Source: a virus. Taken from it: a stretch of 64,000 bases of DNA. Of this stretch, positions 1,902 to 57,738 are shown one piece after another; position 1 is the first letter of the stretch; each line of letters starts with the position of its first letter. A program made the translations under genes and the position numbers. The DNA is taken from the IMG/VR virus record IMGVR_UViG_3300025840_000013. The stretch is one strand, 5' to 3'. The notes under the pieces were generated by a model. That model searched no databases. It was not told the origin of the DNA and saw nothing but the letters and a program-made list of their open reading frames with translations.

Positions 1902-4391
1902 TTAATAAATATAATACCATGCAACAGGATCAGACGCACCAAACCCACTGATTGTAAATGAACCATTTGCATCTGCTGTTAGTGTTTGTGATCTGCCAGA
2001 AAAAGTGGGAGACCATGCAACAACTGTGCGTCCTGCAGCAGCTGCAACTGTCACTGTTGAGTTGTTTCCATTCGCAGGAGTAGTCGTAGAACCAATTCCT
2101 GTTATCCCCCCACTACTCAAAAGTCCAGATGCATCACTTAGTTGATTGATATCTGAAATATTTACTTGCGTCCATGCGTTTGAGTTGTTTCTTACATAGA
2201 ACTCACCACCACCAGTGTCCATCCAGAAATCTCCAGTAGAGGGGTCTGATGGTGCAGTTGTTCCAACTGTCGAGATAACTGCATCATCGGCGTCTAGTTT
2301 AAGTGCAAGTGCATCTACGATTGTATCGTAAACTGATGCGTCATCATTGATTGCAGCTGCAAGTTCGTTTAATGTATCTAGTGCTTCTGGTGCGCCATCC
2401 ACTAGTGCTGCAATTGCACTGGATACATGAGAATGTGTTGCGATTGGATCGTTGTTAATAGTTACAGAATCTGCACTTGGTACAAAAAATTCAACCTTAC
2501 TTCCTTCTGAACTTGCATTAATTAATAACTCTCCACCAAATTCACTGATACTCGCACCCTCATTAAAAATCAACTCGTTTTGTACAGTTAAATTATTAGA
2601 GATGGTTGCATCATTTGCAATAGTTAAATTGTTTGTTCCTATAATGTCACCATTCTCATCTACTCTAAAGATCGCATCATCTTTACTGAGAGATGTATCA
2701 GTATTATAGTTATTGAATAATGCAAAATAATTATTTGCTTCATTATTGTCAGTATCTAAAAACATACAAATGGATTGAACTGAACTAAATGCAAGATTGT
2801 TAGTTCTATCTGATGGAGTATCATAATCCATGAAAATTTTATTTGGATATGTTTCTGATAGTGCATGATTTAGAGTTACATTTCTCCAAACTTTTTGTAG
2901 ATTTTCTGTTTCGTAGTACTGAAGAATGTCATCTGTTTGAGCACCGAATGTGTCAAAATCTTCTAATTGATTTGATGTGATTTTCACGAAATTTGCTCCT
3001 ACTGTCATTTTTAGGGGCACTGCAACTGCAGTTACTCCATATGTTTCTTTTAAATGTAGAACTTCAGCGTTTGCTGCGTTCATATTTTCTGCGACTTTGA
3101 TAAAACTCCAATCGAGTTGGTTGCCTCCAAATGCAGTCTCTAATCTTCGCATCATTATATCAATTGGAAAGACAACGGCAACTTGCGCTTCAAAATTTTC
3201 TAATTCTTCTTTGGCAGTTGCCATGACATTGTAATAACGATAGTCAGAACTTTCTGCTATAGTAACATCTCTAGTTCTGGATATTGTAGTATCAGGATTA
3301 TCAATATCCATTCTATATACATTATAACCTTGATATTGAGAAACTAATTGTTTTCTTGTATATGTAGAATTCGAAGTAGTTGTGTGGGTAGTTGCACTTG
3401 GTGTGTTTTGACTAGTTATAATACTATTATTTTCAATTATTCCCCAACTTCCTACAGTACCATCAGTCAACCCCCCAAATGGCCTTGATGTAGTAATAAT
3501 AGTTTGATTGTTCCAATCATCAAAAATGCTGTATGTCATATTTGCAGGCCTAGAACCAATTCCCTGCATCCATTGTTGATGTTGTAGTTGGTCTGTTACG
3601 CCCGAAATTGCGGTTGGAGTTGTTGTATAATTCCATAAAGTATCTCCAACTATTCCGTCTATGATAACTCCTCTAAATTGATCACTTGAGTCTGTATAAT
3701 TGATTAATGATTTTATTTTTCTTCCGGCCAAAACTGAAGGTGAAATGATAGTATCTCCAACTGCTAGGCCTTCAGTTATCATATCATCAAATTCGGTTGG
3801 TGTCATCATTAAAACATAATCAGGAGACCATAAACTTACATTTCCATTTGAGTCATATGCCCATGAAGGTGCAGAATACCAAGTTCCAGCCCCACCAATA
3901 AAACTGCCAACACCAAATGAACTAAATTGAGTTGTAATTCCACCAAAAACATTTTGTAGTCCAGTAAAACCATTTGTAGTGGTTCCCTGTTCTGCACTTG
4001 CAGTCGCTTCTACCCATCCAGAACTTAATGTACCAGTTGCAGGACTACCCAGCAACACATTTTGAAAGTCTTCTCCAAACACAGTAACATTTTCTGTAAT
4101 AGTACTCGTTGTAAATTCATTATATGATGAAGAGTCGATTACATCTCCAGCCTCATAGGAGTTGCCATTTAATAAGGTTAGTGTTGGTGCCCTAGAACCG
4201 AAATCATAATTTCTCAATATTACAACACCATCTACTACTAAAGACCAAGTTCCTTTTAAAGAGCTTGCGTTAACTGTTAGTGATGGAACCAGTGTATTAA
4301 CTGCTCCATCAATATCCGAACTTTCTAAATGATGAATCCAGACTGTTTGGAAATTACTTGGATTTACATAATTTGTATAGTTTGTTGCCAT
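1902..4391 (-). CDS. Tail fibre-like structural protein
   Basis: AIAALVDGAPEALDTLNELAAAINDD motif common in tail fibres; TAPSDPSTGDFWMDT motif; late promoter upstream. Confidence 0.65.
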   Translation of the reverse strand: MATNYTNYVNPSNFQTVWIHHLESSDIDGAVNTLVPSLTVNASSLKGTWSLVVDGVVILRNYDFGSRAPTLTLLNGNSYEAGDVIDSSSYNEFTTSTITENVTVFGEDFQNVLLGSPATGTLSSGWVEATASAEQGTTTNGFTGLQNVFGGITTQFSSFGVGSFIGGAGTWYSAPSWAYDSNGNVSLWSPDYVLMMTPTEFDDMITEGLAVGDTIISPSVLAGRKIKSLINYTDSSDQFRGVIIDGIVGDTLWNYTTTPTAISGVTDQLQHQQWMQGIGSRPANMTYSIFDDWNNQTIITTSRPFGGLTDGTVGSWGIIENNSIITSQNTPSATTHTTTSNSTYTRKQLVSQYQGYNVYRMDIDNPDTTISRTRDVTIAESSDYRYYNVMATAKEELENFEAQVAVVFPIDIMMRRLETAFGGNQLDWSFIKVAENMNAANAEVLHLKETYGVTAVAVPLKMTVGANFVKITSNQLEDFDTFGAQTDDILQYYETENLQKVWRNVTLNHALSETYPNKIFMDYDTPSDRTNNLAFSSVQSICMFLDTDNNEANNYFALFNNYNTDTSLSKDDAIFRVDENGDIIGTNNLTIANDATISNNLTVQNELIFNEGASISEFGGELLINASSEGSKVEFFVPSADSVTINNDPIATHSHVSSAIAALVDGAPEALDTLNELAAAINDDASVYDTIVDALALKLDADDAVISTVGTTAPSDPSTGDFWMDTGGGEFYVRNNSNAWTQVNISDINQLSDASGLLSSGGITGIGSTTTPANGNNSTVTVAAAAGRTVVAWSPTFSGRSQTLTADANGSFTISGFGASDPVAWYYIY

Positions 4392-8534: not shown

Positions 8535-9836
8535 ATGAAAGGATTGTATACTGTAGTACTTGCACTTTTTTTGAGTGCATGTAGTAGTGGGGAATCATAT
8601 CCCCTAGCCGGGACACCAGTTGCAGATTATTGGTGTCAAAACTACTCTAAGTTTCAAGAATACCACGATGGTAAGGGCGGAACTTATGTAGTAGAAGAAG
8701 AGTTATCAGAAGATTGTGGTTATGAGGAACCAGTTGTCGTTTTTAAAATGACTTTGCCAACTGGTGATAGATTCAACCCCGTTGTGGTTGAAGTTTCATA
8801 TGAACAGTTTGGTGAACCAGTAGAAGATATTATATTAGATTGGTGGTATGAAACTACAAAAGAAACAATAGGATGGGTTGAAACTCCCGATAAGTATACA
8901 CTTTTAATTTATGGTGATGGAAGAATTGGTGAAGGTACGATTATTTTAAATGATGAAGAATTCCTTTACACTATAGAAGATGAACCAAGATGTGCCCATG
9001 AAGGTCGTGTAGATTGTCTTGGATATGCGGTGTCGAGAAATTCACCAGAAGAAGGATTTATTTTTTATAGTGAAGATGATGAATCTATTGTTAATTTTGA
9101 ATTAACTATCTTTGAATACGAACCTCACACAGTTGATGATGACTTGGAGCCGGGGCTTATTTTAAATGTAGACCCGAATGACGACCCTTCTAGATTGTGG
9201 GCGAAGTGGAATACAAGAGTTGAAAAATTTAACAAATTGTATGAAGATTCTGGCGTCTTTGCTAGATTTGAACTCAAAGAAATTTGGATATCCCATTATC
9301 ATGGATTGCTTAGTTTAGAAGAGATTGCATCTGAAGTCGATGCAGACATTGTATTGGGTGCAGGAACCACATATCCAAATACTTGCGGTGTTGCATATCC
9401 CAACACTAGATTTTATGAGGGGTATCCTGTTGTTTCAATGGCAGCGTGTACATGGAAAACCGATTTACACGAAATCGGACATTCGATAGGACTTGCCCAC
9501 GGCCCAGAAAATCAAGGATTTCCAAACTCTGGTTATATATTTCCACAGTTTGGTCATGGGTGGAATGATGTGTGTGGAGAACATGATGATATAATGTCTT
9601 ATGGATATTGGGACAATTTTCATAGTAATTCGTTACTTACTTGTGGACAAATTCTTGGCGATGCATCTAGAAATATACCAGAAGATATTGCAGGGAATCG
9701 ACAAATTACGGATACTGCATATGCAATTAACAGAGTGAGATATGATGTATCTCTTATTAACGATGACAATAAATATAAGCCTGAAGCGGCTGCAAGAGTT
9801 ATAGAAAGATTGGATAGACCAATCATCATAGATTAG
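8535..9836 (+). CDS. Lipoprotein zinc metalloprotease (metzincin, reprolysin-like)
   Basis: lipobox LSAC, HEIGHSIGLAH zinc motif, DIMSY Met-turn. Confidence 0.8.
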   Translation: MKGLYTVVLALFLSACSSGESYPLAGTPVADYWCQNYSKFQEYHDGKGGTYVVEEELSEDCGYEEPVVVFKMTLPTGDRFNPVVVEVSYEQFGEPVEDIILDWWYETTKETIGWVETPDKYTLLIYGDGRIGEGTIILNDEEFLYTIEDEPRCAHEGRVDCLGYAVSRNSPEEGFIFYSEDDESIVNFELTIFEYEPHTVDDDLEPGLILNVDPNDDPSRLWAKWNTRVEKFNKLYEDSGVFARFELKEIWISHYHGLLSLEEIASEVDADIVLGAGTTYPNTCGVAYPNTRFYEGYPVVSMAACTWKTDLHEIGHSIGLAHGPENQGFPNSGYIFPQFGHGWNDVCGEHDDIMSYGYWDNFHSNSLLTCGQILGDASRNIPEDIAGNRQITDTAYAINRVRYDVSLINDDNKYKPEAAARVIERLDRPIIID

Positions 9837-10057: not shown

Positions 10058-10083
10058 GGCAGTATTAATTACTGCCTTTTTTT
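10058..10083 (+). terminator. Rho-independent terminator
   Basis: GGCAGTA-ttaat-TACTGCC followed by T7. Confidence 0.75.
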
Positions 10084-10103: not shown

Positions 10104-10111
10104 CATAAATA
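10104..10111 (+). promoter_or_regulatory. Probable late promoter variant CATAAATA heading the curli-like operon
   Basis: 7/8 match to TATAAATA directly after a terminator and before the 10131 RBS. Confidence 0.5.
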
Positions 10112-10130
10112 GGGGTGAGAGGATTCTTTT

Positions 10131-10418
10131 ATGGACTTTTTATCTTTAGTAGCCGATGTTGGATTTCCAATTGCCTCTGCTCTCGCAGGGGGATTTTTTG
10201 TTTTCTTGACATTAAAATTTATTCTTGCTGGTGTTTTAGATAATATCAAAACACAAAGGGGATTTGTACAATCTTTAGATAATAGAGTAAAGACCATGAA
10301 TAATGAACTCTTGCGAATTGATATACTAATGTGTAGATCATTCAACATTCCATTATTGCCTGCAGATCTTAATAGAATCGCAAGAGCTGATGGACAAACA
10401 GATGCGAGGAAAGATTAA
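10131..10418 (+). CDS. GFPI-motif single-TM coiled-coil protein (paralog 1)
   Basis: VGFPIA-TM-LDNRVKTMNNELLRI; similar to 10802. Confidence 0.7.
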   Translation: MDFLSLVADVGFPIASALAGGFFVFLTLKFILAGVLDNIKTQRGFVQSLDNRVKTMNNELLRIDILMCRSFNIPLLPADLNRIARADGQTDARKD

Positions 10419-10603
10419 TGCTTTGGAAAGACTTACTATTAATTAAATTTAAAGACGGATTTAGAATTACATCGGCAAAAGATCCAGATGATAAATTTTT
10501 TGTTCTTGATGATGTTGAGTTGCAGATTGGCGATTTATACCAAGTTGGGCCTAACGGTTATTTCGAAAAAATTGGAAGTGTTGCAGAGGATACTACGACA
10601 TGA
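10418..10603 (+). CDS. Small beta-rich hypothetical protein
   Basis: coupled TAATG start; IGDLYQVGPNGYF motif. Confidence 0.6.
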   Translation: MLWKDLLLIKFKDGFRITSAKDPDDKFFVLDDVELQIGDLYQVGPNGYFEKIGSVAEDTTT

Positions 10604-10800
10604 TTTGGTTGGAATATGTCATCGAGCAAGCTGGAAGGAACTTTAAAGTTCGTGGTGAATGGGAAGGTGAACTTATGGGAATAGATGCAGACGGAAGTGA
10701 GAAAGAACACTTTCTGTATAAGCCTGGAGACCTTTTTCGTGTGAACGAAAAGGGTTGGTTATGTCATATCTCTGGCGATGATGGTGTAAATAGAGAGTAA
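10600..10800 (+). CDS. Small beta-rich hypothetical protein (paralog of 10418)
   Basis: PGDLFRVNEKGWL motif; ATGA overlap. Confidence 0.6.
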   Translation: MIWLEYVIEQAGRNFKVRGEWEGELMGIDADGSEKEHFLYKPGDLFRVNEKGWLCHISGDDGVNRE

Positions 10801-10801
10801 A

Positions 10802-11095
10802 ATGGAACTAGAATTAGGAACATTAATAGGACAATATGGGTTTCCTATCATAGCTGCATTTGGACTAGGATATTTCATATACTATATCTGGCATTGGGTA
10901 ACAGAAGAGGTAGATCCTGTTATCGAAGAATCGCATATGACTCTGATAGCACTAATCGATAGGGTTAGAATGTTGGACAATGATTTAATAAGATTGAACA
11001 CAAAGTTAAATATGATTTTACAACAAAAGGGAGTTGTTGTCCCATCTGACGAAGAAGTAGAAGAAGTTATAAAAAAACGAAAAGAAAATTCCTAG
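10802..11095 (+). CDS. GFPI-motif single-TM coiled-coil protein (paralog 2)
   Basis: YGFPII-TM-LIDRVRMLDNDLIRL. Confidence 0.7.
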   Translation: MELELGTLIGQYGFPIIAAFGLGYFIYYIWHWVTEEVDPVIEESHMTLIALIDRVRMLDNDLIRLNTKLNMILQQKGVVVPSDEEVEEVIKKRKENS

Positions 11096-11105
11096 AGGAA
11101 AACTT

Positions 11106-11567
11106 ATGAAAAAAATACTGACAGTTATAGGTTTAATATTTGTGAGCAGTAATCTATATGCTTCTGAACTGACATGGGGGTTTAAGAATCCAGCGTTTCA
11201 CTATGGAAATGGTTATTCTACTCATGTTTTGAGTGTTGAACAACTACAACATAATAGAAAAGAGGATTTGAGAAAAGAGGCAGAGGCAGAGGCTGCAAGA
11301 ATTCAGAGAGAACTTGAAAATACAACTCTGGCAAAGTTTCTAAGAAATATCGAATCTAGAATTTACGCAACACTATCTAAACAGATGGTAGACGCAATGT
11401 TTGCTGATTGTGGGGATGCTTGTTCGAATACTGGAACAGCAACCATTGAAGGTTCTACTATAACTTGGGTAAAAGATACAGTTGCTGGTACTATAACACT
11501 AACTGTCATAGAAGAGGATGGAAGTGTCACTGAAATTACAATTCCAACAGGGGAGTTTGGTTTTTGA
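11106..11567 (+). CDS. csgF: Curli assembly protein CsgF-like
   Basis: signal peptide then ASELTWGFKNPAFHYGN (CsgF N-terminal FxNPxF), F...ESRIY..LS..., C-terminal DGSVTEITIP. Confidence 0.8.
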   Translation: MKKILTVIGLIFVSSNLYASELTWGFKNPAFHYGNGYSTHVLSVEQLQHNRKEDLRKEAEAEAARIQRELENTTLAKFLRNIESRIYATLSKQMVDAMFADCGDACSNTGTATIEGSTITWVKDTVAGTITLTVIEEDGSVTEITIPTGEFGF

Positions 11568-12382
11568 TAAAATTAGTACCATTAATAATTTCTCTTTTAT
11601 TTTTATCTGGATGTGCAACCCAAAAAAGTCTTGAAACTTTGTGGGATGTTAATACTTCTCCAGAACTGCAGGAGAGTCCTATTAAGGAACGTCTTGCGGC
11701 GGTTCCCCCAATTGATGGGCCAAAAATTACGATTGCTGTTTATCAGTTTTTAGATAAGACTGGACAAAGAAAATCTGCATCTAATATTGCAAGTTTAAGT
11801 TCTGCAGTAACTCAAGGATCAGAGGTTTGGGTTATAAAGGCACTTCAAGATGTAGGTAATGGTACATGGTTTGAAGTTGTAGAACGTGTTGGTATGGACA
11901 ATTTAATAAAAGAAAGACAATTGATTAGACAAACAAGAGATGTCTATGACAAAGATCGGCCAGGAGGCCCAGAACCACTAAGTCCTATGATTTTTGCAGG
12001 ACTTATCCTTGAGGGGGGAGTGGTTGGTTATGATTCAAATACGGCGACAGGCGGTGTCGGCGCTAGATACTTAGGAGTTGGCGCACAAACAGAATATAGA
12101 ATAGATACTGTTACTGTGGTTATGCGACTAGTAAGTGTTAGTACAGGTAAGGTGTTGATGAGTATCGCAACGGATAAAACCATTGCAAGTTATCGAAGTG
12201 GAGCAGATATATTTAAATTTTTAGATCTTGGTACAAAACTCGTAGAAACTGAAACCGGCTTTTCATCGAATGAACCTGTTAATTATGCTGTCAGAGCAGC
12301 AATAGAACAGGGCGTGATCGAGTTAGTTTATGGTGGAGTAAGAAAACAACTCTGGAAAATGGAATTAAATCAAGAGGACTAA
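11564..12382 (+). CDS. csgG: Curli secretion pore lipoprotein CsgG-like
   Basis: lipobox LSGC; AVYQFLDKTGQRK, SSAVTQG, WFEVVERVGMDNLIKERQLIR, GGVVGYDSN, GGVGARYLGVG, NEPVNYAVRAAIE. Confidence 0.92.
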   Translation: MIKLVPLIISLLFLSGCATQKSLETLWDVNTSPELQESPIKERLAAVPPIDGPKITIAVYQFLDKTGQRKSASNIASLSSAVTQGSEVWVIKALQDVGNGTWFEVVERVGMDNLIKERQLIRQTRDVYDKDRPGGPEPLSPMIFAGLILEGGVVGYDSNTATGGVGARYLGVGAQTEYRIDTVTVVMRLVSVSTGKVLMSIATDKTIASYRSGADIFKFLDLGTKLVETETGFSSNEPVNYAVRAAIEQGVIELVYGGVRKQLWKMELNQED

Positions 12383-12383
12383 T

Positions 12384-13118
12384 ATGTTTAAAAAAATACT
12401 AATAATTTTTGCACTTCTGTACACTATTCCAGTATACGCTAATGAAATCTACATTACACAATCTGGCGATGATCTGGACTTAGATATTGTACAAGATGGA
12501 CAAGACAATAAAATTGGTGATTCGACTACTGATATGATACTGCAAGGCGATACAATGACATTTGATATTACCCAAACGGGCAATTTCAATGAAATTGACG
12601 CTGTAATTAAAGGTAATACTTATACAGGAACATGGGTATTTACTGGAGATACAAATACAGTGGACTTGACTTGTGATACTACTTCGGGTGTAAACTGTGA
12701 AACTGTTACTTTAGATATTACGACAACTGGGGATAATAACCAATTTCAGATGTATATCGGCGAGAACAATGACGCAGAAAATTTAGTTGCAGATTTCACA
12801 ATTACTGGTGACGGTAATGTAATCGATTTAGTACAGGACGGAACAGAGGCAGATATCACTGTTACAGTTGATTCTTCTTCAAGTCTTGCATCTGGTACAA
12901 TCACACATGCAACTACAGGACTTTCTACAAGTGCGCCAGGAAACTACATTGATATAGATCAAACTGGAAATGGGGATATTAACGGACACAGTATTACATT
13001 AGACATTACTGGTGGTGGTGGAAATTTTAAAATTTCCCAATCAGGAATTTATGATAACTTAATTGACGCCACTTTTTCTGGTGATAACGCAGACGTTAAT
13101 ATAACACAACGAGACTGA
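12384..13118 (+). CDS. Secreted curlin-repeat-like protein 1
   Basis: signal peptide; ~22 aa repeats of xDIxQxGxxN type; acidic. Confidence 0.7.
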   Translation: MFKKILIIFALLYTIPVYANEIYITQSGDDLDLDIVQDGQDNKIGDSTTDMILQGDTMTFDITQTGNFNEIDAVIKGNTYTGTWVFTGDTNTVDLTCDTTSGVNCETVTLDITTTGDNNQFQMYIGENNDAENLVADFTITGDGNVIDLVQDGTEADITVTVDSSSSLASGTITHATTGLSTSAPGNYIDIDQTGNGDINGHSITLDITGGGGNFKISQSGIYDNLIDATFSGDNADVNITQRD

Positions 13119-14242
13119 TGTTTAGGTACATCTTCTTATTACTCTTAGTGTTATGTTTTCCACATAACCTATATGGTGCTGCAGGGACTATAACTGACCT
13201 GAGTGGAAGTGGAGTATTGGAAAGAGATACTGATGTTATTATTGGTGATTACGGCATAGGCGTTGAGTCTATGGATGTCGCAGTTACTGAAAGTGGTAAG
13301 ATGCGAATAGATTTCATTGATAATACTAGAGTAGATTTGACAGAACATACCAGACTATTAATAGATGAATTTGTTTATGACCCCAATAGTGGAACTGGTT
13401 CTCTTGGATTGAGGGCTACATTAGGCACTATTCGTTACGCAAGTGGTAAAATCGCCACAAACAGTAGACAAAGAGTTAACATCAGAACTCCAAGTGCAAA
13501 GATTAGTGTAAGGGGTACTGATTTTATTATGGTTGTTGATGAAATTGGCGGCAGTATGATTACATTACTGCCAAGTTGTGATATAGATGGTTATTGTGTC
13601 ACTGGTGAAATTTTGGTTGAAACTGATACAGGGTTTGTTATAATGACTCAGGCCTTTCAATCTACTATCGTAAAAAGTATGTGGTCGAAACCATTACCGC
13701 CAATTACACTAGATATATCTGAAGGCGATATTAATAATTTATTAATGTTAAGAAAAAAGTCACCTTATGAGGAAGAAGAACAAGAAATTATGAGGAAGGC
13801 CAGAAAAATGTTTGATTTTCTGGATATAGATTTTCTTGAATTTGATGATTTAGATCAAGATGCATTAACTGATGATATTAAAAATATATGGGTAACTGAA
13901 TTGCACGATTCTAATTATTATCTACAAGAACTATTACACGACATGTTAGATCAGTTAAATTTGGCACTTGCAGAAATATTTAGAGATGAATTAGATAAAC
14001 AGAACGAAGAATTTTTTGCACAAAGAGTTTATGGGTATGATGAAACGACAAGAATCACCATAGAAGATCTTAATCCTATGTGGAGAATTATAAGAGAAGA
14101 TGCTGGTGTTACTCAAAGACTAGATTTGAAACTGCATCAAGAAAACGGATACACAATAAACATGGAGCAAGGAGATGAAGCAGTATACGATTACCGCCTT
14201 GGTGTTGGTACTAACACTATCGATATCATCCAAAGCCAGTAG
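13118..14242 (+). CDS. Exported FecR-domain protein with acidic C-terminal extension
   Basis: signal peptide; D.AVT...MRIDFID.TRVDLTEHTRLLIDEFVYDP, IRTPSAKISVRGTDF FecR motifs. Confidence 0.8.
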   Translation: MFRYIFLLLLVLCFPHNLYGAAGTITDLSGSGVLERDTDVIIGDYGIGVESMDVAVTESGKMRIDFIDNTRVDLTEHTRLLIDEFVYDPNSGTGSLGLRATLGTIRYASGKIATNSRQRVNIRTPSAKISVRGTDFIMVVDEIGGSMITLLPSCDIDGYCVTGEILVETDTGFVIMTQAFQSTIVKSMWSKPLPPITLDISEGDINNLLMLRKKSPYEEEEQEIMRKARKMFDFLDIDFLEFDDLDQDALTDDIKNIWVTELHDSNYYLQELLHDMLDQLNLALAEIFRDELDKQNEEFFAQRVYGYDETTRITIEDLNPMWRIIREDAGVTQRLDLKLHQENGYTINMEQGDEAVYDYRLGVGTNTIDIIQSQ

Positions 14243-14858
14243 TAATGAAATTTACATTACTCAAAGTGGAGACAATCTTACTTTGGATATTCAACAGCGC
14301 AGTGAAAACAATTATATCAATCTAAGTTCTACAGGGCCAAATAATGACATTACTATACGGCAAGGTATCCACGATGATAACACATATGATGGTGACGAAA
14401 CTGGTGGGCATGAGGCATATTGGACTGTAACGGGCGATGGAAATACAGTTGCAAGTTATCAAACAGATACCAATAGAGGTGGTGGCGGTGGTGCAGCACA
14501 CCACTTAGCAAATATAGTAAATGGTGATAGTAATACAGTAGAACATATACAAATGGGTAAGGCTGGACATGATGGTTTTGTAGAGATACAGGGCGACAGC
14601 AACACAGTAGATCTGTATCAAAGAGGTAATGGTGGGCAAAAATGGGCAGACATCGTGCTAACAGGTGATGGTCACACAGTAGATGTTGAACAACTAGGCA
14701 GTCAAAGTGCAACAGCGGCAATAGATTTAACTAATTCTGGGGGCGCATATACCTTAAACTTGACTCAAAATGTAACTTCATCTCCAGGCTCTTATAGTGT
14801 TACAGGATATTGTACAAATTCGGCGGGATGCTCGGTAACTATAAACGGAAACAATTGA
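14175..14858 (+). CDS. Secreted curlin-repeat-like protein 2 (His/Gly rich)
   Basis: signal peptide; NEIYITQSGD start shared with 12384; GDxNTVxxxQ repeats; C-terminal CTNSAGC. Confidence 0.7.
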   Translation: MKQYTITALVLVLTLSISSKASSNEIYITQSGDNLTLDIQQRSENNYINLSSTGPNNDITIRQGIHDDNTYDGDETGGHEAYWTVTGDGNTVASYQTDTNRGGGGGAAHHLANIVNGDSNTVEHIQMGKAGHDGFVEIQGDSNTVDLYQRGNGGQKWADIVLTGDGHTVDVEQLGSQSATAAIDLTNSGGAYTLNLTQNVTSSPGSYSVTGYCTNSAGCSVTINGNN

Positions 14859-14870
14859 GGTTGTTTTTTT

Positions 14871-14878
14871 TATAAATA
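14871..14878 (+). promoter_or_regulatory. T4-type late promoter TATAAATA
   Basis: exact motif, intergenic. Confidence 0.7.
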
Positions 14879-14929
14879 TGTTTCGTGATTATATCAATCA
14901 CATGTATCATTTCATACTTGGAGGCTATA

Positions 14930-15100
14930 ATGACTACAGCAGTTGCGTTCGAGCGGGCTGCGAAGATCATTGATACAAAGTTTGAAGAAGTGAAACAGAA
15001 TGAACAAGTGTGTAAATTCTGCGAATTACTACAAATGATGAGTTTAATGACTTTGCCTTTCGCTATTCCTTACTTCATAATTTATTGGAGTTACAACTAA
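14930..15100 (+). CDS. Small protein with CxxC and C-terminal TM
   Basis: GGAGG RBS before ATG 14930. Confidence 0.6.
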   Translation: MTTAVAFERAAKIIDTKFEEVKQNEQVCKFCELLQMMSLMTLPFAIPYFIIYWSYN

Positions 15101-15105
15101 AAACA

Positions 15106-15128
15106 AGACCCGCTTAATGCGGGTTTTT
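15106..15128 (+). terminator. Rho-independent terminator
   Basis: GACCCGC-ttaat-GCGGGTT followed by Ts. Confidence 0.7.
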
Positions 15129-15131
15129 GTT

Positions 15132-15139
15132 TATAAATA
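15132..15139 (+). promoter_or_regulatory. T4-type late promoter TATAAATA upstream of the cyclase
   Basis: exact motif directly after a terminator. Confidence 0.7.
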
Positions 15140-15158
15140 GTTACGAAATGAGGTACTA

Positions 15159-15263
15159 ATGGAGACTTTAGCGGGATATTTATTTTTCGTAACTTTAATA
15201 ATTGTAAACACATCATTGCATGTGTTTATTTGGAAGTCATTGGATGGAGAATTACCAGAATGA
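15159..15263 (+). CDS. 34 aa single-TM peptide coupled to the cyclase, not in ORF track
   Basis: GAGG RBS; METLAGYLFFVTLIIVNTSLHVFIW...; ATGA overlap with cyclase start. Confidence 0.6.
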   Translation: METLAGYLFFVTLIIVNTSLHVFIWKSLDGELPE

Positions 15264-17302
15264 AAAAACTCTTACTGTCTCCCATATGGAGTATTATTAT
15301 ACTTCTTTTATGTACTTACGGATACTATACAAATCCAAATTTATTAGAAAGTTTAAGACTTAGATACTTCGATAGTCTTATAGTCAATCAACCAATCCAA
15401 GAAAATAATATCTACACAGTCAATATTGATGATGCAACTATCAATCAATATGGACAATGGCCATTTCCAAGAAACATATATGCAGATATAATTAAAGACC
15501 TGTACGACAGAGGTGCAGGATTAGTTGTGTTTAATGTACTCATGAGTGAAAATGATAGATTTGAACAGGACGAAGTTCTGTCAAGAACAATGATGGAAAA
15601 TCCAGTCATTCTGAGTATTATAGGATCTGAGGAGAATAAAAATGAACCGATCAACCCTGGCGCTGGAATTATTAATTCTGAGTTTATGCATCTCATTCCA
15701 AGTGTATCTGGCATCACATCTAATATTGAATTACTTGAAACTTATGCACTTGGTTCAGGGATAGTTGATACTTATCCAGAAATTGATGGTGTTACACGAA
15801 GAGCTCCACTAGTTTTTGAGTCTGGTGGTGTCTTATATCCTAGTTTGACGATGGAAGTATTGAGAGTACTTGCCGGCGACAAATCCTTCCAAATTAAGTT
15901 ATCACCATTAGGGGTAGATAAACTTAGAATACCACAATATGGGCCTATCCAAACAAATGAATTGGGAGAAGTTTGGATTGATTGGTCGCAGGGATACAGA
16001 AGTGCGAGTGTTGTAGATTTGCCAGATAGTTTTGACGGTGCGGTTGTATTTGTTGGAGTTAGTGCATCTGGAGTCACACAACCAATTTCTACTGCGAAAG
16101 GTGGAGTGTGGCCACACGAAATACAGGCAGCGATGTTAGGAACTGTTTTCAATGAGTCCAATATAGTAAGACATCCAGACGCAAAGGCGTGGGGTGAAAT
16201 TACTGCATTAGTGGCCGCAGGACTTCTTATTATATTATTATCAAAGTGGACATATATTGGTTTAGGGTTTTATGCTGTATCTGTAGTGGGGTTTGTTGGT
16301 GGGTCGATATATGCATTTAGAACAGAGAATCTACTTATCGATGGTGCTACTATTTCTGCAATTTTATTATTAGTTGGACTTAGTAGATATGTTGTAAAGT
16401 TTTTGGATGAGTTCTTACAGAAACAGGCTATCAAGAAACAATTTGAAGGTTATGCATCACCGGCAGTGGTTAAAATTTTACAAGAAAATCCAGACCTTGT
16501 AAAGAAAGGTACAAAAAGAGAGATTAGTATTTGTTTTTCTGATTTGAGAGGATTCACTCCATTAGGAGAATCTTTTGGTGATGATGTGCAGGGACTGACG
16601 GAAATAATGAACGGATACATGGATGCTATTACAGAACCAGTCTTAAAAAATAACGGAATGATAATTAAGTATATTGGTGATGCATCTATGCATATTCATA
16701 ACGCACCAGTTGATGATGAATCACATGCACATACATCTGTAAGAACAGGATTAGAAATGTTGAAGGCGGTTGAGAAATTTAATGATAGACTTGTTGCAGA
16801 TGGAAGACCACCAGTTGGTATGGGTGCTGGTATTAATACTGGTGTTGGTTATATTGGAGAGATGGGTTCGACTAAAAGATATAGTTATGATGTTCTTGGT
16901 GATTCGGTTTCTACTACTGCACGATTAGAGGGACAGTGTAAGGCATATGGTGTACTGTTGATCATCGGCCCAGAAACATATAGAAGAACTAAAGAAGATT
17001 TCTTTTATTTAAAATTGGACGACCTTGCGGTAAAAGGAAAAAGTATTGGTTTGCCGATCTACACAGTTTTAGATGGTGAAAATGCCGATTGGTCAAAGTA
17101 TAAATTAGTACATAGAAATATGTTAAAGTTTTATAGAAAAAAACAGTTCGACAAGGCCATAGAACTGTGCAAGTTATTGAAAGGACAATTTGATGGCAAA
17201 ATGGATGGATATTACGATATGTGGATGGAACGTTGTGATTTCATGTCAACGCAAGATCTCCCAGAAGATTGGGACGGAATTTTTAGAGCAACAACGAAGT
17301 GA
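15260..17302 (+). CDS. CHASE2-domain class III adenylate/guanylate cyclase (membrane bound)
   Basis: N-terminal TM; VNIDD...YGQWPFPR, DGVTRR, VFVG, HE.QA CHASE2 motifs; 3 TMs; FSDLRGFT, IKYIGDA, GINTG, YDVLGDSV..ARLEG cyclase motifs. Confidence 0.92.
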   Translation: MKKLLLSPIWSIIILLLCTYGYYTNPNLLESLRLRYFDSLIVNQPIQENNIYTVNIDDATINQYGQWPFPRNIYADIIKDLYDRGAGLVVFNVLMSENDRFEQDEVLSRTMMENPVILSIIGSEENKNEPINPGAGIINSEFMHLIPSVSGITSNIELLETYALGSGIVDTYPEIDGVTRRAPLVFESGGVLYPSLTMEVLRVLAGDKSFQIKLSPLGVDKLRIPQYGPIQTNELGEVWIDWSQGYRSASVVDLPDSFDGAVVFVGVSASGVTQPISTAKGGVWPHEIQAAMLGTVFNESNIVRHPDAKAWGEITALVAAGLLIILLSKWTYIGLGFYAVSVVGFVGGSIYAFRTENLLIDGATISAILLLVGLSRYVVKFLDEFLQKQAIKKQFEGYASPAVVKILQENPDLVKKGTKREISICFSDLRGFTPLGESFGDDVQGLTEIMNGYMDAITEPVLKNNGMIIKYIGDASMHIHNAPVDDESHAHTSVRTGLEMLKAVEKFNDRLVADGRPPVGMGAGINTGVGYIGEMGSTKRYSYDVLGDSVSTTARLEGQCKAYGVLLIIGPETYRRTKEDFFYLKLDDLAVKGKSIGLPIYTVLDGENADWSKYKLVHRNMLKFYRKKQFDKAIELCKLLKGQFDGKMDGYYDMWMERCDFMSTQDLPEDWDGIFRATTK

Positions 17303-17497: not shown

Positions 17498-17833
17498 ATG
17501 ACGAAAGTATTATCAATTACAGAAAGTGCAAAGACCCACTTACTAAATATCCTAATCAAAAACGATGAAACACATATAATGTTTGGAATGCAAGGTGGTG
17601 GATGTGCTGGATTTGAGTACTTTTGGAAACTTGGTAGTGAAGAACCCATAAAAGACTTAGATGAAATTATAGAATTATCAGATGGTAAAGTCTTTGTAGT
17701 AGATAGTCATAGTTTAATGTATATATTAGGTAGTACTATTGACTATCAAGAAAGTCTAGCAGGCAGTATGTTAGTAGTAGATAATCCACAAGCAAAGAGT
17801 TCTTGTGGATGTGGTGTTAGTGTAAATATTTAA
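17498..17833 (+). CDS. iscA: A-type Fe-S cluster carrier (IscA/HesB/ErpA family)
   Basis: GGGCAGFEY, GSTIDY, NPQAKSSCGCG. Confidence 0.9.
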   Translation: MTKVLSITESAKTHLLNILIKNDETHIMFGMQGGGCAGFEYFWKLGSEEPIKDLDEIIELSDGKVFVVDSHSLMYILGSTIDYQESLAGSMLVVDNPQAKSSCGCGVSVNI

Positions 17834-39246: not shown

Positions 39247-39323
39247 CTGCCCTTAGCTCAGCTGGATAGAGCAACAGCCTTCTAAGCTGTGGGTCGTAGG
39301 TTCGAATCCTACAGGGCAGGCCA
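39247..39323 (+). tRNA. tRNA-Arg(UCU)
   Basis: cloverleaf, anticodon loop CT-TCT-AA, GTTCGAATCC, encoded CCA. Confidence 0.95.
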
Positions 39324-39569
39324 ATTAATATCGGGCGAGTCGGACGCTCGATTTTGTCGAGTGAGTAAAAACACGGTTAAGCCTGAAAACGACACTAAAT
39401 AGAAGACTCAGGTGGGAAGTTGGAAATCCCTCACAAGAAACCAACATGATTAAACAGGGGCGGACAGTAGGAAGAGGCGACTAATGTATAAGAAAATAAA
39501 GCGGCCTGCAACCCCTCAAACTGCTAAGGTTACGAACACCTACTGTCCTTTTTATTCGGAGTTACTATA

Positions 39570-39773
39570 ATGCAAGTATCACCAGTATCGCCAGTAAGAA
39601 TTGTGAGTGAGTATGTTAGACAACTGAATGTCGGTGATAAAATTCATAACATTGTAGTAACACATAAAGATTTTGGAGGCTCTGTTAGAGTTGAAGAAGT
39701 TTATAGAACATACGATAAAACTGGAAAGATAAGAACAGTCGAACCAGTTAGTAAAGTTGATGTTGAAGTTTAG
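39570..39773 (+). CDS. Small hypothetical protein between tRNAs
   Basis: GGAG RBS; stop codon abuts tRNA-Gly. Confidence 0.55.
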   Translation: MQVSPVSPVRIVSEYVRQLNVGDKIHNIVVTHKDFGGSVRVEEVYRTYDKTGKIRTVEPVSKVDVEV

Positions 39774-39847
39774 GCGGATGTCGTATAATGGTATTACCTT
39801 AGCCTTCCAAGCTAATGACAGGGGTTCGATTCCCCTCATCCGCTCCA
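39774..39847 (+). tRNA. tRNA-Gly(UCC)
   Basis: GCGGATG/CATCCGC acceptor stem, CT-TCC-AA loop, CCA. Confidence 0.95.
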
Positions 39848-39855
39848 AAAATAAA

Positions 39856-40026
39856 AATCCAAGGTGACGGCCTGTGGATTGTGGTGACTGAATAATCCCT
39901 TGCAAATGGGGATAAGGTAATGTCGAAGGAACTTAGCGGTTCGTCTTAGCGGATGCAGACAGGTATGAGTCAAGTTAGACAGGAAGTTTGCCAGTGACTC
40001 GTTGCAGGATCCTAACCCTGCCCACA
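39856..40026 (+). ncRNA. Putative multi-stem structured RNA (unassigned)
   Basis: several nested helices, tandem CTTAGCGG hairpins, no credible ORF. Confidence 0.45.
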
Positions 40027-40029
40027 CTA

Positions 40030-40127
40030 ATAAATTTCTAAGTACACATGAGAGTAGATGCACCTACTTTCCTGTGCATAGGACAAGGGTTTGAAAGACT
40101 GCAAGTCATGTGTATTTAAAAATTTAT
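40030..40127 (+). ncRNA. Putative structured RNA with complementary hairpin loops (unassigned)
   Basis: ~20 bp closing helix; loops ATGCAC and GTGCAT; GAAA tetraloop. Confidence 0.5.
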
Positions 40128-40204
40128 CGGGGTATAGCGCAGTCTGGTAGCGCATCTGCTTTGGGAGCAGAGGGTCGTTGGTTCGAATCCAGCTACCCCG
40201 ACCA
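40128..40204 (+). tRNA. tRNA-Pro(UGG)
   Basis: cloverleaf, TT-TGG-GA loop, CCA. Confidence 0.95.
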
Positions 40205-40216
40205 ATTTAGGAATAT

Positions 40217-40292
40217 TCCCAGATAGCTCAGTTGGTAGAGCAAATGACTGTTAATCATTGGGTCGGGGGTTCGAGCCCCTCTCTGGGAGCCA
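40217..40292 (+). tRNA. tRNA-Asn(GUU)
   Basis: cloverleaf, CT-GTT-AA loop, CCA. Confidence 0.95.
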
Positions 40293-40312
40293 AATAAAGA
40301 GTAGGATACTAG

Positions 40313-40855
40313 TTGAGTAATTTTAGATTTATTGAAAAGAACCTAGATGTAAGTAAGATACTACAACAAGTTCTTGATAATCCAAAAGATTGGAATTATG
40401 TTAATAACTTAAAGACAGATGGAAAAGATGTCGGCGGTGATGTAGACCCATATGGATTCTTGCCTCTAGTTATGGCAGTTGTAAAGCCAGGAGAAAGTCC
40501 AAAGAATACAGAAAAAACTCAGAAGACTGAGCTTTATGATAAATATGATGAAGTTTCGAAGTGGTTAAGAAGTCAAGGAATAACACAATTATCAAGAGCT
40601 GCATTTTTTAAGTTGGGTGTTGATGAGTGGGTTGGTAAACATATAGATGAAGGATCTTACTATTTAACTAGAGATAGGTATCATCTTTCTCTACAAGGTA
40701 GTTATGATTATGAAGTTGATGGAGAATGGCATACTATTGAGCCGGGCACTTTCTTCTGGTTTGATAATAAAAAATACCATCAGGCGCATAATGTAGGTGA
40801 TGTTGAAAGAATAACTTTTGTATTTGATGTTCCAAAGTCAGAAAACAATCCATAG
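40313..40855 (+). CDS. Aspartyl/asparaginyl beta-hydroxylase-like 2OG oxygenase
   Basis: KHIDEG...RYHLSL...FWFDNKKYHQA.N...RITFVFD. Confidence 0.8.
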   Translation: MSNFRFIEKNLDVSKILQQVLDNPKDWNYVNNLKTDGKDVGGDVDPYGFLPLVMAVVKPGESPKNTEKTQKTELYDKYDEVSKWLRSQGITQLSRAAFFKLGVDEWVGKHIDEGSYYLTRDRYHLSLQGSYDYEVDGEWHTIEPGTFFWFDNKKYHQAHNVGDVERITFVFDVPKSENNP

Positions 40856-40867
40856 TAAGGATACGAG

Positions 40868-41149
40868 ATGTATAAACCTCTACCAGAAGAAGTAACAATA
40901 AAAAAATCAGGTATACACGGACTTGGCCTTTGGTGCATAAAACCGATCAAAGAAGGAACTGAGATCGGAATGTCGCATTTTTATTGGGGAGAAAATTTGC
41001 AAAGAACTCCATTAGGTGCTTTTTATAATCACTCTGACGAACCTAATATAGTAAAGATTAAAAAAGATAGTAGATTCTTTATTGTTGCCATTAGAGATAT
41101 TTGGCCAGGCGAAGAGATTACATGTCAGTATACTTTTTATCAGATGTAA
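40868..41149 (+). CDS. Minimal SET-domain protein
   Basis: SGIHGLGLW, FYNHSDEPN, RDIWPGEEITCQY. Confidence 0.85.
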   Translation: MYKPLPEEVTIKKSGIHGLGLWCIKPIKEGTEIGMSHFYWGENLQRTPLGAFYNHSDEPNIVKIKKDSRFFIVAIRDIWPGEEITCQYTFYQM

Positions 41150-41347
41150 AGGATGTATATATATTATGAGAATGGAAACTGCGAAGAAAAATTTTGATAT
41201 TGATGTTGCAGGGAATATACTTTTAAATAGTAGTCAGTCTCCCAAGGATTTGCAAATTCAAAGTGGAGATACATATGCTGCAATGATTGTTGATGGAAAG
41301 CCCATTCTAATTAAGTTGGAGTTAACTTTAAAAGAATAGGAATAGTT

Positions 41348-41545
41348 ATGTCACTTGGATTTAGAGACAAATACCAAAACATAATTAAGAATTTAGTTCA
41401 GAATGCCGACCAGTGCAGTCAACAGTGGGTTCTTACTGGAGAACCAGAATGGCATGCTGCATATATGATGTATGTTGGAAAGGTTTGTGAATTAAAGGAC
41501 TGGATTAAAGAAAGAGAAAGTGAAATAGAGAATACGCCGCTGTAG
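41348..41545 (+). CDS. Small hypothetical protein whose stop lies inside tRNA-Thr
   Basis: AGGA RBS, ORF. Confidence 0.55.
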   Translation: MSLGFRDKYQNIIKNLVQNADQCSQQWVLTGEPEWHAAYMMYVGKVCELKDWIKERESEIENTPL

Positions 41546-41611
41546 CTCAGCTGGTAGAGCAACTGATTTGTAATCAGTAGGTCGGGAGTTCGAATCTCTC
41601 TAGCGGCACCA
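41536..41611 (+). tRNA. tRNA-Thr(UGU)
   Basis: cloverleaf, TT-TGT-AA loop, CCA. Confidence 0.95.
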
Positions 41612-45640: not shown

Positions 45641-45671
45641 TTGACAAAAAGAAAAGAATAGTGTATAAATA
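45641..45671 (+). promoter_or_regulatory. Composite promoter: TTGACA-N17-TATAAA overlapping late TATAAATA
   Basis: TTGACA 45641-46; TATAAATA 45664-71. Confidence 0.75.
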
Positions 45672-45673
45672 CA

Positions 45674-45981
45674 GTTGTAATTGTTGATACGATTCAACAT
45701 ACATACTGGACTTGGGGGCAGTACCCAACGCCTCCACCATAAGCACATCCGTAAGGCGCAGTAAGGTTCCCAACGGATTACCGTAGAAGACTACGCAGGG
45801 TGTGTTTATGATGGGGGCGAACTAGGATCGACAGGTGTGTAGAGATGAGAGTAGATTACCGTGTTGACCTACGATATTCGGTCGAACAAAACTAAACGCA
45901 AACGATAACTTTGCACCTGAGTTTGCTCTAGCAGCATGATCAGCGGGGTATGGGTTCCACCTTGTTACCAAACGGGCCCGC
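45674..45981 (+). ncRNA. ssrA: Circularly permuted (two-piece) tmRNA, alphaproteobacterial type; tag ANDNFAPEFALAA
   Basis: acceptor piece ends GGGGCAGTACCC..CGCCTCCACCA (45739); coding piece starts GGGGGCG (45813) giving G3.U70; tag ORF 45898-45939; outer ends approximate. Confidence 0.9.
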
Positions 45982-46005
45982 AGTCATAGTAAAAGGATTT
46001 AATAA

Positions 46006-46353
46006 ATGACAAAGTTTTTATTCGGGGCCGCTTCGGCGGTTTTTTTATGCACATCTGCAATGGCAGAAGGAATTAGAGGCCATGTAGATGGCGAAGTTGA
46101 ATATAGTTTGGAAAATGAAAAATTTACATCTGAATTAGGATACACAATGGCACTTCCACAAGGATTGGTGCTACGCCCATGGGCAGATTTTTCATATGAT
46201 CGTAACTTAGCATCTGATACAATTAATTTTGACGGTGTTAATTTAGGAGTTTCATATGCAGTATCTCCTGCACTTTCTCTTTACAGTGATATTAGTGCAG
46301 ATCATGATTTTGAATATGAAGATACATCAGTTGGATTTCGCTTTACATTCTGA
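46006..46353 (+). CDS. Small outer-membrane beta-strand protein
   Basis: signal peptide, alternating beta strands, C-terminal VGFRFTF. Confidence 0.65.
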   Translation: MTKFLFGAASAVFLCTSAMAEGIRGHVDGEVEYSLENEKFTSELGYTMALPQGLVLRPWADFSYDRNLASDTINFDGVNLGVSYAVSPALSLYSDISADHDFEYEDTSVGFRFTF

Positions 46354-57162: not shown

Positions 57163-57738
57163 TTATGATCTCCTAGCAGAATCTGACCAAACTTTCGAAG
57201 CAGCGGCCTTTTTGAATTTTTGTACTGGTAAAAACAATGCGATGTCCCATTCATTTGCCTCAATTTTTACAAACTTTGATCTAACATGAGTAAACAAGTA
57301 TTTTTTGAGACAAGGTTTTATGACATTATATTTAGACAGACCTTTTAGAACATTATAAGATAATCTGAGTCTTGTTGTTGAATCATATCTTTTGTTCGAT
57401 GCAATTTCAGATAATGCATTCATTACAACGATTCTATTTCTTGGCGAAACATAGTGCAAGTTAATTCCAACAAACCCCCCAGATATTCTTTCTACCATAA
57501 AGATAAGTGGAAATTCATCGTAATATGGCAACTTCTTTGCATACTTAGGGTCATATTGATAACAATACATACTACCAATATTAGGTGTTGCTGCAGAACG
57601 ATCCCCATCGCCCAATAGGGATGCCCTTGTGATTCTCGTTTCTCTTGCCTTTTTTCTAAACCACTCCCTTGCTTTATCAGTATTTGGTCTAATGTTTCGA
57701 GCAGCGAGTCTATTTAATAGTGGTGTAAAGTCTGTCAT
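57163..57738 (-). CDS. 2: DNA end protector gp2
   Basis: YDPKYAKKLPYYDEFPL, GINLHY, PCLKKYLFTHVRS, LPVQKF. Confidence 0.9.
   Translation of the reverse strand: MTDFTPLLNRLAARNIRPNTDKAREWFRKKARETRITRASLLGDGDRSAATPNIGSMYCYQYDPKYAKKLPYYDEFPLIFMVERISGGFVGINLHYVSPRNRIVVMNALSEIASNKRYDSTTRLRLSYNVLKGLSKYNVIKPCLKKYLFTHVRSKFVKIEANEWDIALFLPVQKFKKAAASKVWSDSARRS

Follow-up and report, generated by a model that had tools for sequence, protein, structure and literature searches.

A curli-type cassette with a FecR-domain protein and a CHASE2 cyclase in a marine T4-like phage: a candidate envelope-sensing system

A stretch of 64,000 nucleotides (nt) of viral DNA (IMG/VR record IMGVR_UViG_3300025840_000013, referred to as the window) carries between positions 10104 and 17302 the genes for the curli pore proteins CsgF and CsgG, two curlin-repeat proteins, an exported FecR-domain protein and a membrane-bound cyclase with a CHASE2 receptor domain. 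On balance, the run is considered to be a “viral type VIII secretion (curli)” cassette and a chimera of two bacterial modules, which would be transcribed from late-type promoters and would include a working envelope sensor. The first module is a minimal curli set, consisting of the CsgG lipoprotein, CsgF and two exported curlin-repeat proteins. The second is an envelope-sensor pair that is widespread in bacteria, namely, a periplasmic FecR-domain protein and a CHASE2 receptor with a class III adenylate cyclase as output. All genes named in an initial annotation of this DNA are present and intact.

The cassette is already known and the window holds a real, intact member of it. Its order csgF-csgG-curlin-FecR-curlin-cyclase is shared with Pelagibacter phage HTVC008M (KC465899) and Methylophilales phage Melnitz (MZ577097), in which the same six genes are annotated in the same order in GenBank, as well as with the IMG/VR loci surveyed below. 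Zaragoza-Solas et al. 2020 (PMC7029224), who were the first to note it, and Buchholz et al. 2022 (PMC9004378) described csgF and csgG only and stated that csgA/B were missing; the initial annotation had mentioned such csgF/csgG-like genes in marine myophages. It had also supposed that FecR and the cyclase do not feature in any functional account. This was mistaken, as Wittmers et al. 2022, mSystems (PMC9599517) reported, for podo- and myo-pelagiphages, csgF, csgG, csgA/B, FecR, another csgA/B and an adenylate cyclase, and discussed their functions. These authors noted that FecR, the adenylate cyclase and an “HK” (histidine kinase) do not occur in bacterial curli operons and proposed aggregation, superinfection defence or import. 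CHASE2 is mentioned in none of the three papers (PMC7029224, PMC9004378, PMC9599517). Compared with this published picture, three points are new: FecR and the cyclase appear as a conserved bacterial sensor pair grafted onto the curli set and not as stray regulators, SAR11 bacteria seem to have a CHASE2/FecR operon of their own, and the expected receiver of cyclic AMP (cAMP; family PF00027) is absent from the phage and host-type genomes searched.

The curli set, the sensor pair and their arrangement

The Pfam matches of CsgF, CsgG and both curlins all exceeded the curated cut-offs. CsgF matched PF10614 over profile positions 2-132 (E 8.5e-13). Its mature N-terminus carries the motif F-K-N-P-A-F, which resembles the peptide lining the CsgG channel in E. 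coli (N-P-x-F motif). CsgG matched PF03783 (E 7e-49) and could be aligned over its full length to E. coli CsgG (E 1.8e-49). At the channel constriction, Tyr, Asn and Phe of the E. coli protein presumably align to Ala, Ser and Leu. Curlin 1 scored 24.9 bits with Curlin_rpt (cut-off 20.7), while curlin 2 was matched with E 1.2e-10 and relatives of it reach E 7.6e-23. Both curlins have a signal peptide and a common mature start, N-E-I-Y-I-T-Q-S-G-D, that is kept in both paralogues across phages. The AlphaFold2 (AF2) model of curlin 1 is a regular all-beta solenoid with a predicted local distance difference test score (pLDDT) of 83. Foldseek retrieved nothing for it from the PDB at E <= 0.001. In a wider structural search (VIA), CsgA from Pontibacter (8c50_A) came out on top with Z 17.1 over 187 residues, at 22% identity and a root-mean-square deviation (rmsd) of 8.8, a score tied with that of generic beta-helices of the SufD type. 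Curlin 2 varies among phages between 113 and 503 amino acids (aa). An N-terminal PA14 domain was found on it in HTVC008M (L001 10585-11910, E 2.7e-6) and in a second locus (L142 12887-14179, E 3.5e-7), and such a head fits a surface-exposed, adhesive product. No open reading frame (ORF) of the run matched the CsgE, CsgC, CsgD or CsgH families, with a limit as lenient as E <= 10 for the small ORFs, so that the initial annotation was right to recognise no csgE-, csgC- or csgD-like gene. CsgE is not essential for curli according to literature cited in PMC7029224.

The cyclase matched CHASE2 (PF05226, E 5.8e-35, residues 26-334 of the long ORF), Guanylate_cyc (PF00211, E 8.9e-17) and phrog_35576 (E 2e-173) as well as solved cyclases, e.g. 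CyaB (3r5g, E 1.7e-21). The predicted topology comprises a transmembrane (TM) segment, a periplasmic CHASE2 domain, three TM-like segments, a cytoplasmic catalytic domain and a C-terminal extension of ~75 aa; the TM-like segments lie at residues 3-22 and 308-382. The catalytic residues D428, D474, K470, D544 and R555 are present in the window and the Asn position is occupied by Ser551. In the distinct phage cyclases (46/46), there is no variation at the two metal-binding Asp, at the substrate Lys or at the Arg. The specificity pair Lys/Asp is of the adenylate type. Median identity of the phage enzymes to the window cyclase was 74% in the catalytic domain versus 36% in CHASE2. A conserved catalytic domain with a variable CHASE2 region is in line with an active enzyme whose sensor part evolves quickly.

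The FecR-domain protein matched PF04773 (E 2.9e-8), and its sole hydrophobic segment is the signal peptide. Its AF2 model (pLDDT 68) consists of a beta-sandwich at residues 23-200 (pLDDT ~80-88), an acidic, partly helical stretch of low confidence at 200-300 and a small all-beta domain at 305-372. Residues 50-211 resemble the C-terminal periplasmic signalling domain of PupR (6ovk; Z 15.3, rmsd 2.8, 134 residues) and residues 19-113 a “cell surface anchoring domain” (5ix9, Z 10.3). Neither a cytoplasmic anti-sigma domain nor a TM helix was found in the protein, whose beta-sandwich directly follows the signal peptide from residue 23, and no extracytoplasmic function (ECF) sigma factor or TonB-dependent transducer was matched among the genes of the run. 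Since the anti-sigma domain and the TM helix are lacking, the protein as modelled shares the domain but not the membership of the FecR anti-sigma regulator family. This bears on the proposal that FecR is a ferric-citrate-type regulator and that the cassette imports or responds to iron or siderophores (PMC9599517). While the name of the Pfam family and the fold match to the periplasmic domain of PupR agree with it, the proposal is highly improbable for a protein with only a cleavable signal peptide, in a run without either partner and with bacterial kin that adjoin CHASE2 receptors, not FecI/FecA.

The C-terminal half of the FecR-domain protein gave no trustworthy sequence match in the PDB and no language-model match, and it was barely covered by the structure searches. 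Its acidic linker and beta domain were matched only in phage loci and not in bacterial FecR genes. The strand N-T-I-D-I-I-Q in this region was tried as a homologue of the curlin repeats and rejected, as hhalign aligned only the signal peptides with 17% probability; the likeness is a short-motif resemblance only.

The genes and signals of the region are arranged as follows.

10058..10076, +, terminator-like hairpin ending the preceding unit, stem rich in GC and then a run of T, 28 nt ahead of CATAAATA
10104..10111, +, CATAAATA, late-promoter-like motif of the NATAAATA type, 27 nt ahead of the opening gene
10131..10418, +, single-pass membrane protein, 95 aa, phrog_18771 paralogue A, N-terminal TM segment followed by a tail predicted to be helical
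10418..10603, +, small soluble acidic protein, 61 aa, optional cassette member without family match
10600..10800, +, small soluble acidic protein, 66 aa, optional cassette member without family match
10802..11095, +, single-pass membrane protein, 97 aa, phrog_18771 paralogue B (E 7e-29)
11106..11567, +, CsgF homologue with signal peptide (PF10614; phrog_35372)
11564..12382, +, CsgG homologue, lipoprotein (PF03783; lipobox L-S-G-C)
12384..13118, +, curlin-repeat protein 1, 244 aa, exported, predicted beta-solenoid (Curlin_rpt)
13118..14242, +, exported FecR-domain protein, 374 aa (PF04773; signal peptide)
14175..14858, +, curlin-repeat protein 2, 227 aa (Curlin_rpt), start overlapping the FecR gene by 68 nt
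14871..14878, +, TATAAATA ahead of the 56-aa gene (motif search)
14930..15100, +, 56-aa protein with a C-terminal TM segment, GGAGG ribosome-binding site
15105..15127, +, terminator-like hairpin, 9 bp with 5 GC pairs, T run
15132..15139, +, TATAAATA, late-promoter-like motif at the head of the unit of small ORF and cyclase (motif search)
15159..15263, +, hydrophobic small ORF of 34 codons, GAGGT ribosome-binding site, stop overlapping the cyclase ATG (ATGA)
15260..17302, +, CHASE2 receptor-type class III adenylate cyclase, 680 aa (CHASE2 and Guanylate_cyc; phrog_35576)

From csgF through curlin 2, neighbouring genes overlap or abut. The fecR gene overlaps the curlin 1 gene by 1 nt, and the curlin 2 gene, which has an AAGGAG ribosome-binding site, starts 68 nt within fecR. 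The co-oriented and tightly coupled run of csgF, csgG, curlin 1, FecR and curlin 2 that had been described was therefore recovered in full. CATAAATA stands at 10104 as had been reported, but the run headed by it opens with four small genes 5' of csgF. Similarly, one small gene and a terminator had been placed before the cyclase; the hairpin is there, but the small ORF at 15159-15263 also lies in between. The small gene meant is most likely the one at 14930-15100, which has its own TATAAATA at 14871. The 34-codon ORF, previously unannotated, encodes one TM-like segment, is coupled to the cyclase start via ATGA and gave no family match; the two nearest contigs (L092 and L093) share it together with the DNA upstream of it. 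For the cyclase, 15260 is a more likely start than 15230, because the PHROG match begins there.

TATAAATA occurs 12 times in the window against 6.8 expected, a weak enrichment, and the count of CATAAATA is not above chance (5 versus 6.0 expected). The position of the motif was more informative. In the 80 related viral loci surveyed, 35/50 distinct copies of the first small gene have ATAAATA in the 60 nt upstream of them. The corresponding values were 24/68 copies for csgF and 12/45 for the cyclase, and none for csgG (0/67) or the FecR gene (0/59), at a background rate of 0.9% per 60-nt window. The first small gene of relatives has CATAAATA or TATAAATA at the same place, its ATG lying ~27 nt (range 13-40) further on. 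Elsewhere in the window, TATAAATA lies 20-40 nt before a tail-fibre-like gene ending at 4391, a gene starting at 57738 (-) and a gene at 58267, and it also precedes tail and baseplate genes. Position, and not count, makes a strong case that motifs of the NATAAATA type mark unit starts, and it lends support to the late expression that the initial annotation had proposed. Metatranscriptome reads for cassette genes were reported in PMC9599517. Late-type promoters, together with the baseplate and tail genes that adjoin the cassette in HTVC008M and Melnitz, would also suit virion- or baseplate-associated proteins instead of cell-envelope proteins. This is scarcely credible for a set in which five proteins carry either a lipobox or a Sec signal peptide, the cyclase spans the membrane several times and all domains belong to envelope families.

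Linkage across phages and origin of the two modules

IMG/VR was scanned with a CsgG alignment, which gave at least 588 loci, and the best 80 were kept for the survey. Genes were counted in the 42 loci whose sequence continues for at least 6 kb downstream of csgG; CsgG of the surveyed loci was at least 51% identical. FecR, curlin 1 and the CHASE2 cyclase were each present in 42/42 of these informative viral loci and curlin 2 in 39/42. Such a survey had been proposed in the initial annotation as a check on the linkage of csgFG with FecR and CHASE2, and both genes accompanied the pore genes throughout. Counted from whichever of the curlin or FecR genes came last, the cyclase lay between -54 nt (overlap) and +4570 nt away, and it was on the opposite strand in four loci. 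FecR was never found away from the curlins, whereas the cyclase was often separated by inserts or inverted. That the linkage is kept through such rearrangement argues for selection on the whole set.

In the window itself, the cyclase is set apart by a block of ~400 bp that is common only to the two nearest contigs. In relatives with 98% and 93% CsgG identity as well as in HTVC008M and Melnitz, the cyclase abuts curlin 2. The separate cyclase unit that had been described is therefore a recent insert in this lineage and not a design feature. The 56-aa gene was rejected as a conserved cassette member, as its homologues occur only in the same two contigs.

The phrog_18771 pair was present in 32 of the 33 full loci, 12 times upstream of csgF and 20 times downstream on the opposite strand, and by this distribution the two membrane proteins appear to be obligate companions of the cassette. 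Homologues of the acidic 61-aa and 66-aa proteins lie inside the cassette in many loci and just 3' of the cyclase in Melnitz. The two small genes before csgF are probably the “HK, sometimes two” of PMC9599517, judging from position and number. A histidine kinase identity of these genes of 95-97 aa was rejected: no kinase domain and no Pfam match (E <= 10) was found except for a 10-residue YvrJ fragment. For paralogue B, language-model leads pointed only to YvrJ or to BhlA/UviB holin-like clusters (0.85-0.87, below trust level).

These leads touch on a reading that dispenses with fibres, in which CsgG-CsgF would be a gated channel, secretin or pinholin for lysis timing or the passage of molecules. 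The absence of CsgE from the run, the weak holin-like leads of the companion membrane proteins and the constriction residues, which presumably differ from those of E. coli, are all in line with it. An outer-membrane pore, however, cannot depolarise the inner membrane as a holin does, the holin lead reaches only 0.85, and curlin 1 models as a CsgA-like solenoid. The reading was put forward in the Melnitz paper (PMC9004378), where no clumping was seen and csgA/B were assumed to be missing, whereas two curlin genes with signal peptides are present in 42/42 and 39/42 loci. We regard it as quite improbable.

To trace the sensor pair outside phages, species-representative genomes were scanned with the FecR alignment. 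This gave 79 loci, of which 3 were misbinned phage contigs and 76 bacterial. About 20 of the 76 had a CHASE2 protein within a few kb; they belong to Alphaproteobacteria, Planctomycetia, Myxococcota, Deltaproteobacteria, Spirochaetales, Elusimicrobia and Pelagibacteraceae. No CsgG, CsgF or curlin was detectable with the phage proteins in these ~20 loci. For 15 such neighbourhoods with 90 ORFs, Pfam families were tallied: CHASE2, Guanylate_cyc and FecR were found in 14 ORFs each, TPR_19 in 6, cNMP_binding in 3, and HTH_Crp_2 and SpoIIE in 2 each; CsgG was found in none of the 15. Conversely, the 7 csgF+csgG loci from 401 sampled alphaproteobacterial genomes had no FecR, CHASE2 or cyclase within ~9 kb. 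Because the bacterial FecR+CHASE2 loci are without csgG and the bacterial csgFG loci without FecR or CHASE2, the phage cassette is, in the data searched and on the strength of gene content, a graft of a FecR/CHASE2 sensor module onto a curli module. Homologues of ~60% identity in metagenome-assembled genomes labelled as bacterial (Hellea, Rhodobacteraceae, Pirellulales, Flavobacteriaceae) were considered as bacterial origins and rejected. The six contigs concerned carry the full cassette with phage-type neighbours (S21, heme oxygenase, PebS-type, many small ORFs) and look like phage contigs misbinned into bacterial genomes.

In S. meliloti, the gene of the FecR-domain protein SMc02177 presumably adjoins cyaD1. 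A physical or functional interaction of FecR and CHASE2 is not known for any bacterial pair. That CHASE2 cyclases are found beside FecR-domain proteins in bacteria, as the initial annotation had stated, agrees with the ~20 of 76 loci and with the literature (PMC5192318, PMC9239204, PMC5498481). In Campylobacterota, a CHASE2 adenylate cyclase is clustered with phosphodiesterase, FecR-domain and TPR proteins (PMC9239204). Burkholderia has an arrangement of response regulator, LysM-FecR, CHASE2 histidine kinase and DUF4136, in which the LysM/FecR gene adjoins the CHASE2 histidine kinase (PMC5192318). In S. meliloti, CHASE2 cyclases drive a cAMP regulon that has SMc02177 among its targets, and these cyclases become constitutive without CHASE2 (PMC5498481). 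They sense a plant protein via the outer-membrane barrel NsrA, according to work cited in PMC13001267.

In seven single-cell genomes of Pelagibacteraceae, a CHASE2 gene has a small FecR-domain gene at a distance of ~1.3 kb. In one of them (L049 6449-11419, Pelagibacteraceae AG-898-A03), the genes encode a CHASE2-SpoIIE(PP2C) receptor, a DUF2860 protein that has a signal peptide and a body rich in beta structure, an exported FecR-domain protein of 190 aa and a 344-aa protein of unknown family, and the operon lies directly 3' of an FtsW/RodA gene. A description of this SAR11 CHASE2-PP2C/DUF2860/FecR operon was not found in the literature. Between the FecR proteins of the window and of SAR11, identity amounts to 36% over 89 residues; for the CHASE2 regions it is 23%. 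Judged from these genes, SAR11 already appears to use the FecR/CHASE2 sensor logic with a different output.

Proposed working and its closest alternative

In late infection, CsgG-CsgF pores would be inserted and the curlins exported to the surface, where curlin 2 of some relatives would display its PA14 adhesin-type head. The FecR-domain protein would stay in the periplasm as the partner of CHASE2 and would set the activity of the cyclase by an envelope-side state, either the state of secretion or fibres or an external cue. The cytoplasmic domain would then make cAMP, as its Lys/Asp specificity pair suggests. The initial annotation had arrived at a similar trans-envelope signalling idea. Gene identities, export signals, late-type promoters, linkage and the bacterial FecR-CHASE2 precedent all speak for it, but in outline it is not new.

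A physical relay from the pore through FecR to the cyclase is an extension that we infer from the same set of genes. In its most specific form, the state of the CsgG/CsgF pore or the curlin fibre would act through FecR on the CHASE2 cyclase, and the resulting cAMP would be a signal of the phage's own, picked up by a phage receptor not recognised so far in order to adjust late events such as lysis timing. The state sensed could be cell contact, a superinfecting phage or a secretion jam, in a host that could be without a cAMP system of its own. We consider this specific form rather unlikely.

Several observations weigh against a working sensor. The transition-state Asn is replaced by Ser in 39/46 phage cyclases, including those of the window and Melnitz, and the change co-varies with Asp544; the remaining 7/46, including HTVC008M, have Ser/Thr plus the canonical Asn. 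The replacement could reduce or alter the activity. A search of four records, namely HTVC008M, Melnitz, the nearest virus record and a SAR11 genome of 1.1 Mb, gave no match to the cyclic nucleoside monophosphate (cNMP)-binding family PF00027; it covered this family only, with GAF and other cNMP-binding folds outside its scope, and SAR11 may not be the host. A class III cyclase was not found in the 1.1-Mb SAR11 genome either. As no PF00027 protein turned up in the phage or SAR11 genomes searched, the cyclase output is without a known receiver, which is the main weakness of any signalling model. A Crp-like gene is a frequent part of the bacterial FecR/CHASE2 cassettes but is lacking in the phage cassette. 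The surveyed loci come from related phages (CsgG at least 51% identical), and shared ancestry explains part of the linkage. Finally, the authors of the Melnitz study saw no clumping of infected cells (PMC9004378), and the place of fecR between the curlin genes, with translational coupling, is no less compatible with secretion than with sensing as the role of the protein.

This last point leads to the closest alternative, in which FecR would serve secretion and take the place of CsgE/CsgC by gating, capping or chaperoning CsgG and the curlins in the periplasm, and the cyclase would be a separate auxiliary in a shared late operon. The overlaps of fecR with both curlin genes (1 nt and 68 nt), the lack of a CsgE in the run, the resemblance of residues 19-113 to the anchoring domain 5ix9 (Z 10.3) and the phage-only C-terminal region are consistent with it, as is the fact that FecR stays with the curlins while the cyclase is often separated or inverted. 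On the other hand, the FecR-CHASE2 partnership recurs in bacteria, whose csgFG loci do without FecR, the cyclase is kept in 42/42 loci and profile comparison gave no homology of FecR and curlins. We hold a role of FecR in secretion alone to be possible but unlikely. The readings of a pore without fibres and of iron regulation fit the data less well, and the sensor pair grafted onto a curli set is the reading that we prefer.

The phages in question infect relatives of SAR11 and OM43, which belong to the ocean's most numerous bacteria, and the cassette has been estimated at ~0.1% of assembled viral proteins (PMC9599517). If the preferred reading is true, a late fibre-plus-sensor system could affect aggregation, superinfection and lysis timing, and hence carbon flow.

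Phage setting and comparison with known systems

The window has a GC content of 36% and encodes T4-type tail and baseplate-hub genes as well as a gp32-type single-stranded DNA-binding protein. Its closest cultured CsgG relatives are those of HTVC008M (49% identity) and Melnitz (45%), while IMG/VR contigs reach up to 100% CsgG identity to the window copy. A near-identity DNA search of a phage collection gave no match to the window. Because of the T4-type structural genes and the nearest CsgG homologues in HTVC008M and Melnitz, the window is assigned, by gene content, to an uncultured marine T4-like myophage of the pelagimyophage/Melnitz group.

Some further features were noted in the window. 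A permuted (two-piece) transfer-messenger RNA was detected by ARAGORN at 45646-46030 with the tag ANDNFAPEFALAA; in Melnitz, an ssrA is annotated in the syntenic position and is discussed in PMC9004378. Five tRNA genes (Arg-tct, Gly-tcc, Pro-tgg, Asn-gtt, Thr-tgt) lie at 39247-41611 with sizeable spacers between them. Directly upstream of the cassette, 8535-9836 encodes a 433-aa lipoprotein (lipobox L-S-A-C) with the reprolysin-like zinc-protease motif H-E-I-G-H-S-I-G-L-A-H (Pfam Reprolysin_3, E 8.8e-5). This putative metalloprotease was rejected as a cassette member, as homologues were found only in the two closest viral contigs. At 17498-17833, 3' of the cyclase, lies an ORF of 111 aa with C-G-C-G at its end that looks by eye like HesB/IscA-type iron-sulfur carriers and has homologues in a few related contigs.

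In comparison with the canonical curli system of Enterobacteria (csgBAC-csgDEFG), the cassette has in common the CsgG lipoprotein pore, a CsgF with the N-P-x-F motif at its N-terminus and exported, Q/N-rich repeat subunits with a beta-solenoid fold, which is predicted on the phage side. It differs in that CsgE, CsgC and CsgD are missing and that a single operon stands under phage late promoters. The phage subunits measure 227-244 aa and have a shared N-terminus and paired cysteines, and the constriction residues of CsgG are presumably altered. With the FecR/PupR anti-sigma regulators, the phage protein shares the periplasmic FecR beta-sandwich fold; it differs from them in the absence of the anti-sigma domain, the TM helix and the STN domain and of an ECF sigma or TonB-dependent partner in the run.

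The viral type VIII secretion system of pelagiphages has the same order of csgF, csgG, curlin, FecR, curlin and cyclase. Unlike there, the window cyclase is split off by the 56-aa gene, a terminator, a late promoter and the 34-codon ORF. The labels also differ, as FecR was read as an iron regulator and the small upstream genes as histidine kinases in PMC9599517.

Bacterial FecR/CHASE2 cassettes resemble the phage cassette in having an exported FecR-domain gene near a CHASE2 TM receptor, most commonly with a class III cyclase as output; in the window, nothing but curlin 2 and the insert stands between the FecR and cyclase genes. In the bacterial cassettes there are TPR, Crp-like or phosphodiesterase genes but none for curli, while the reverse applies to the phage cassette, and the phage FecR protein differs from the bacterial ones by its phage-specific C-terminal region. 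With CyaD1/NsrA of S. meliloti, there is a precedent for an outer-membrane protein that feeds a CHASE2 cyclase.

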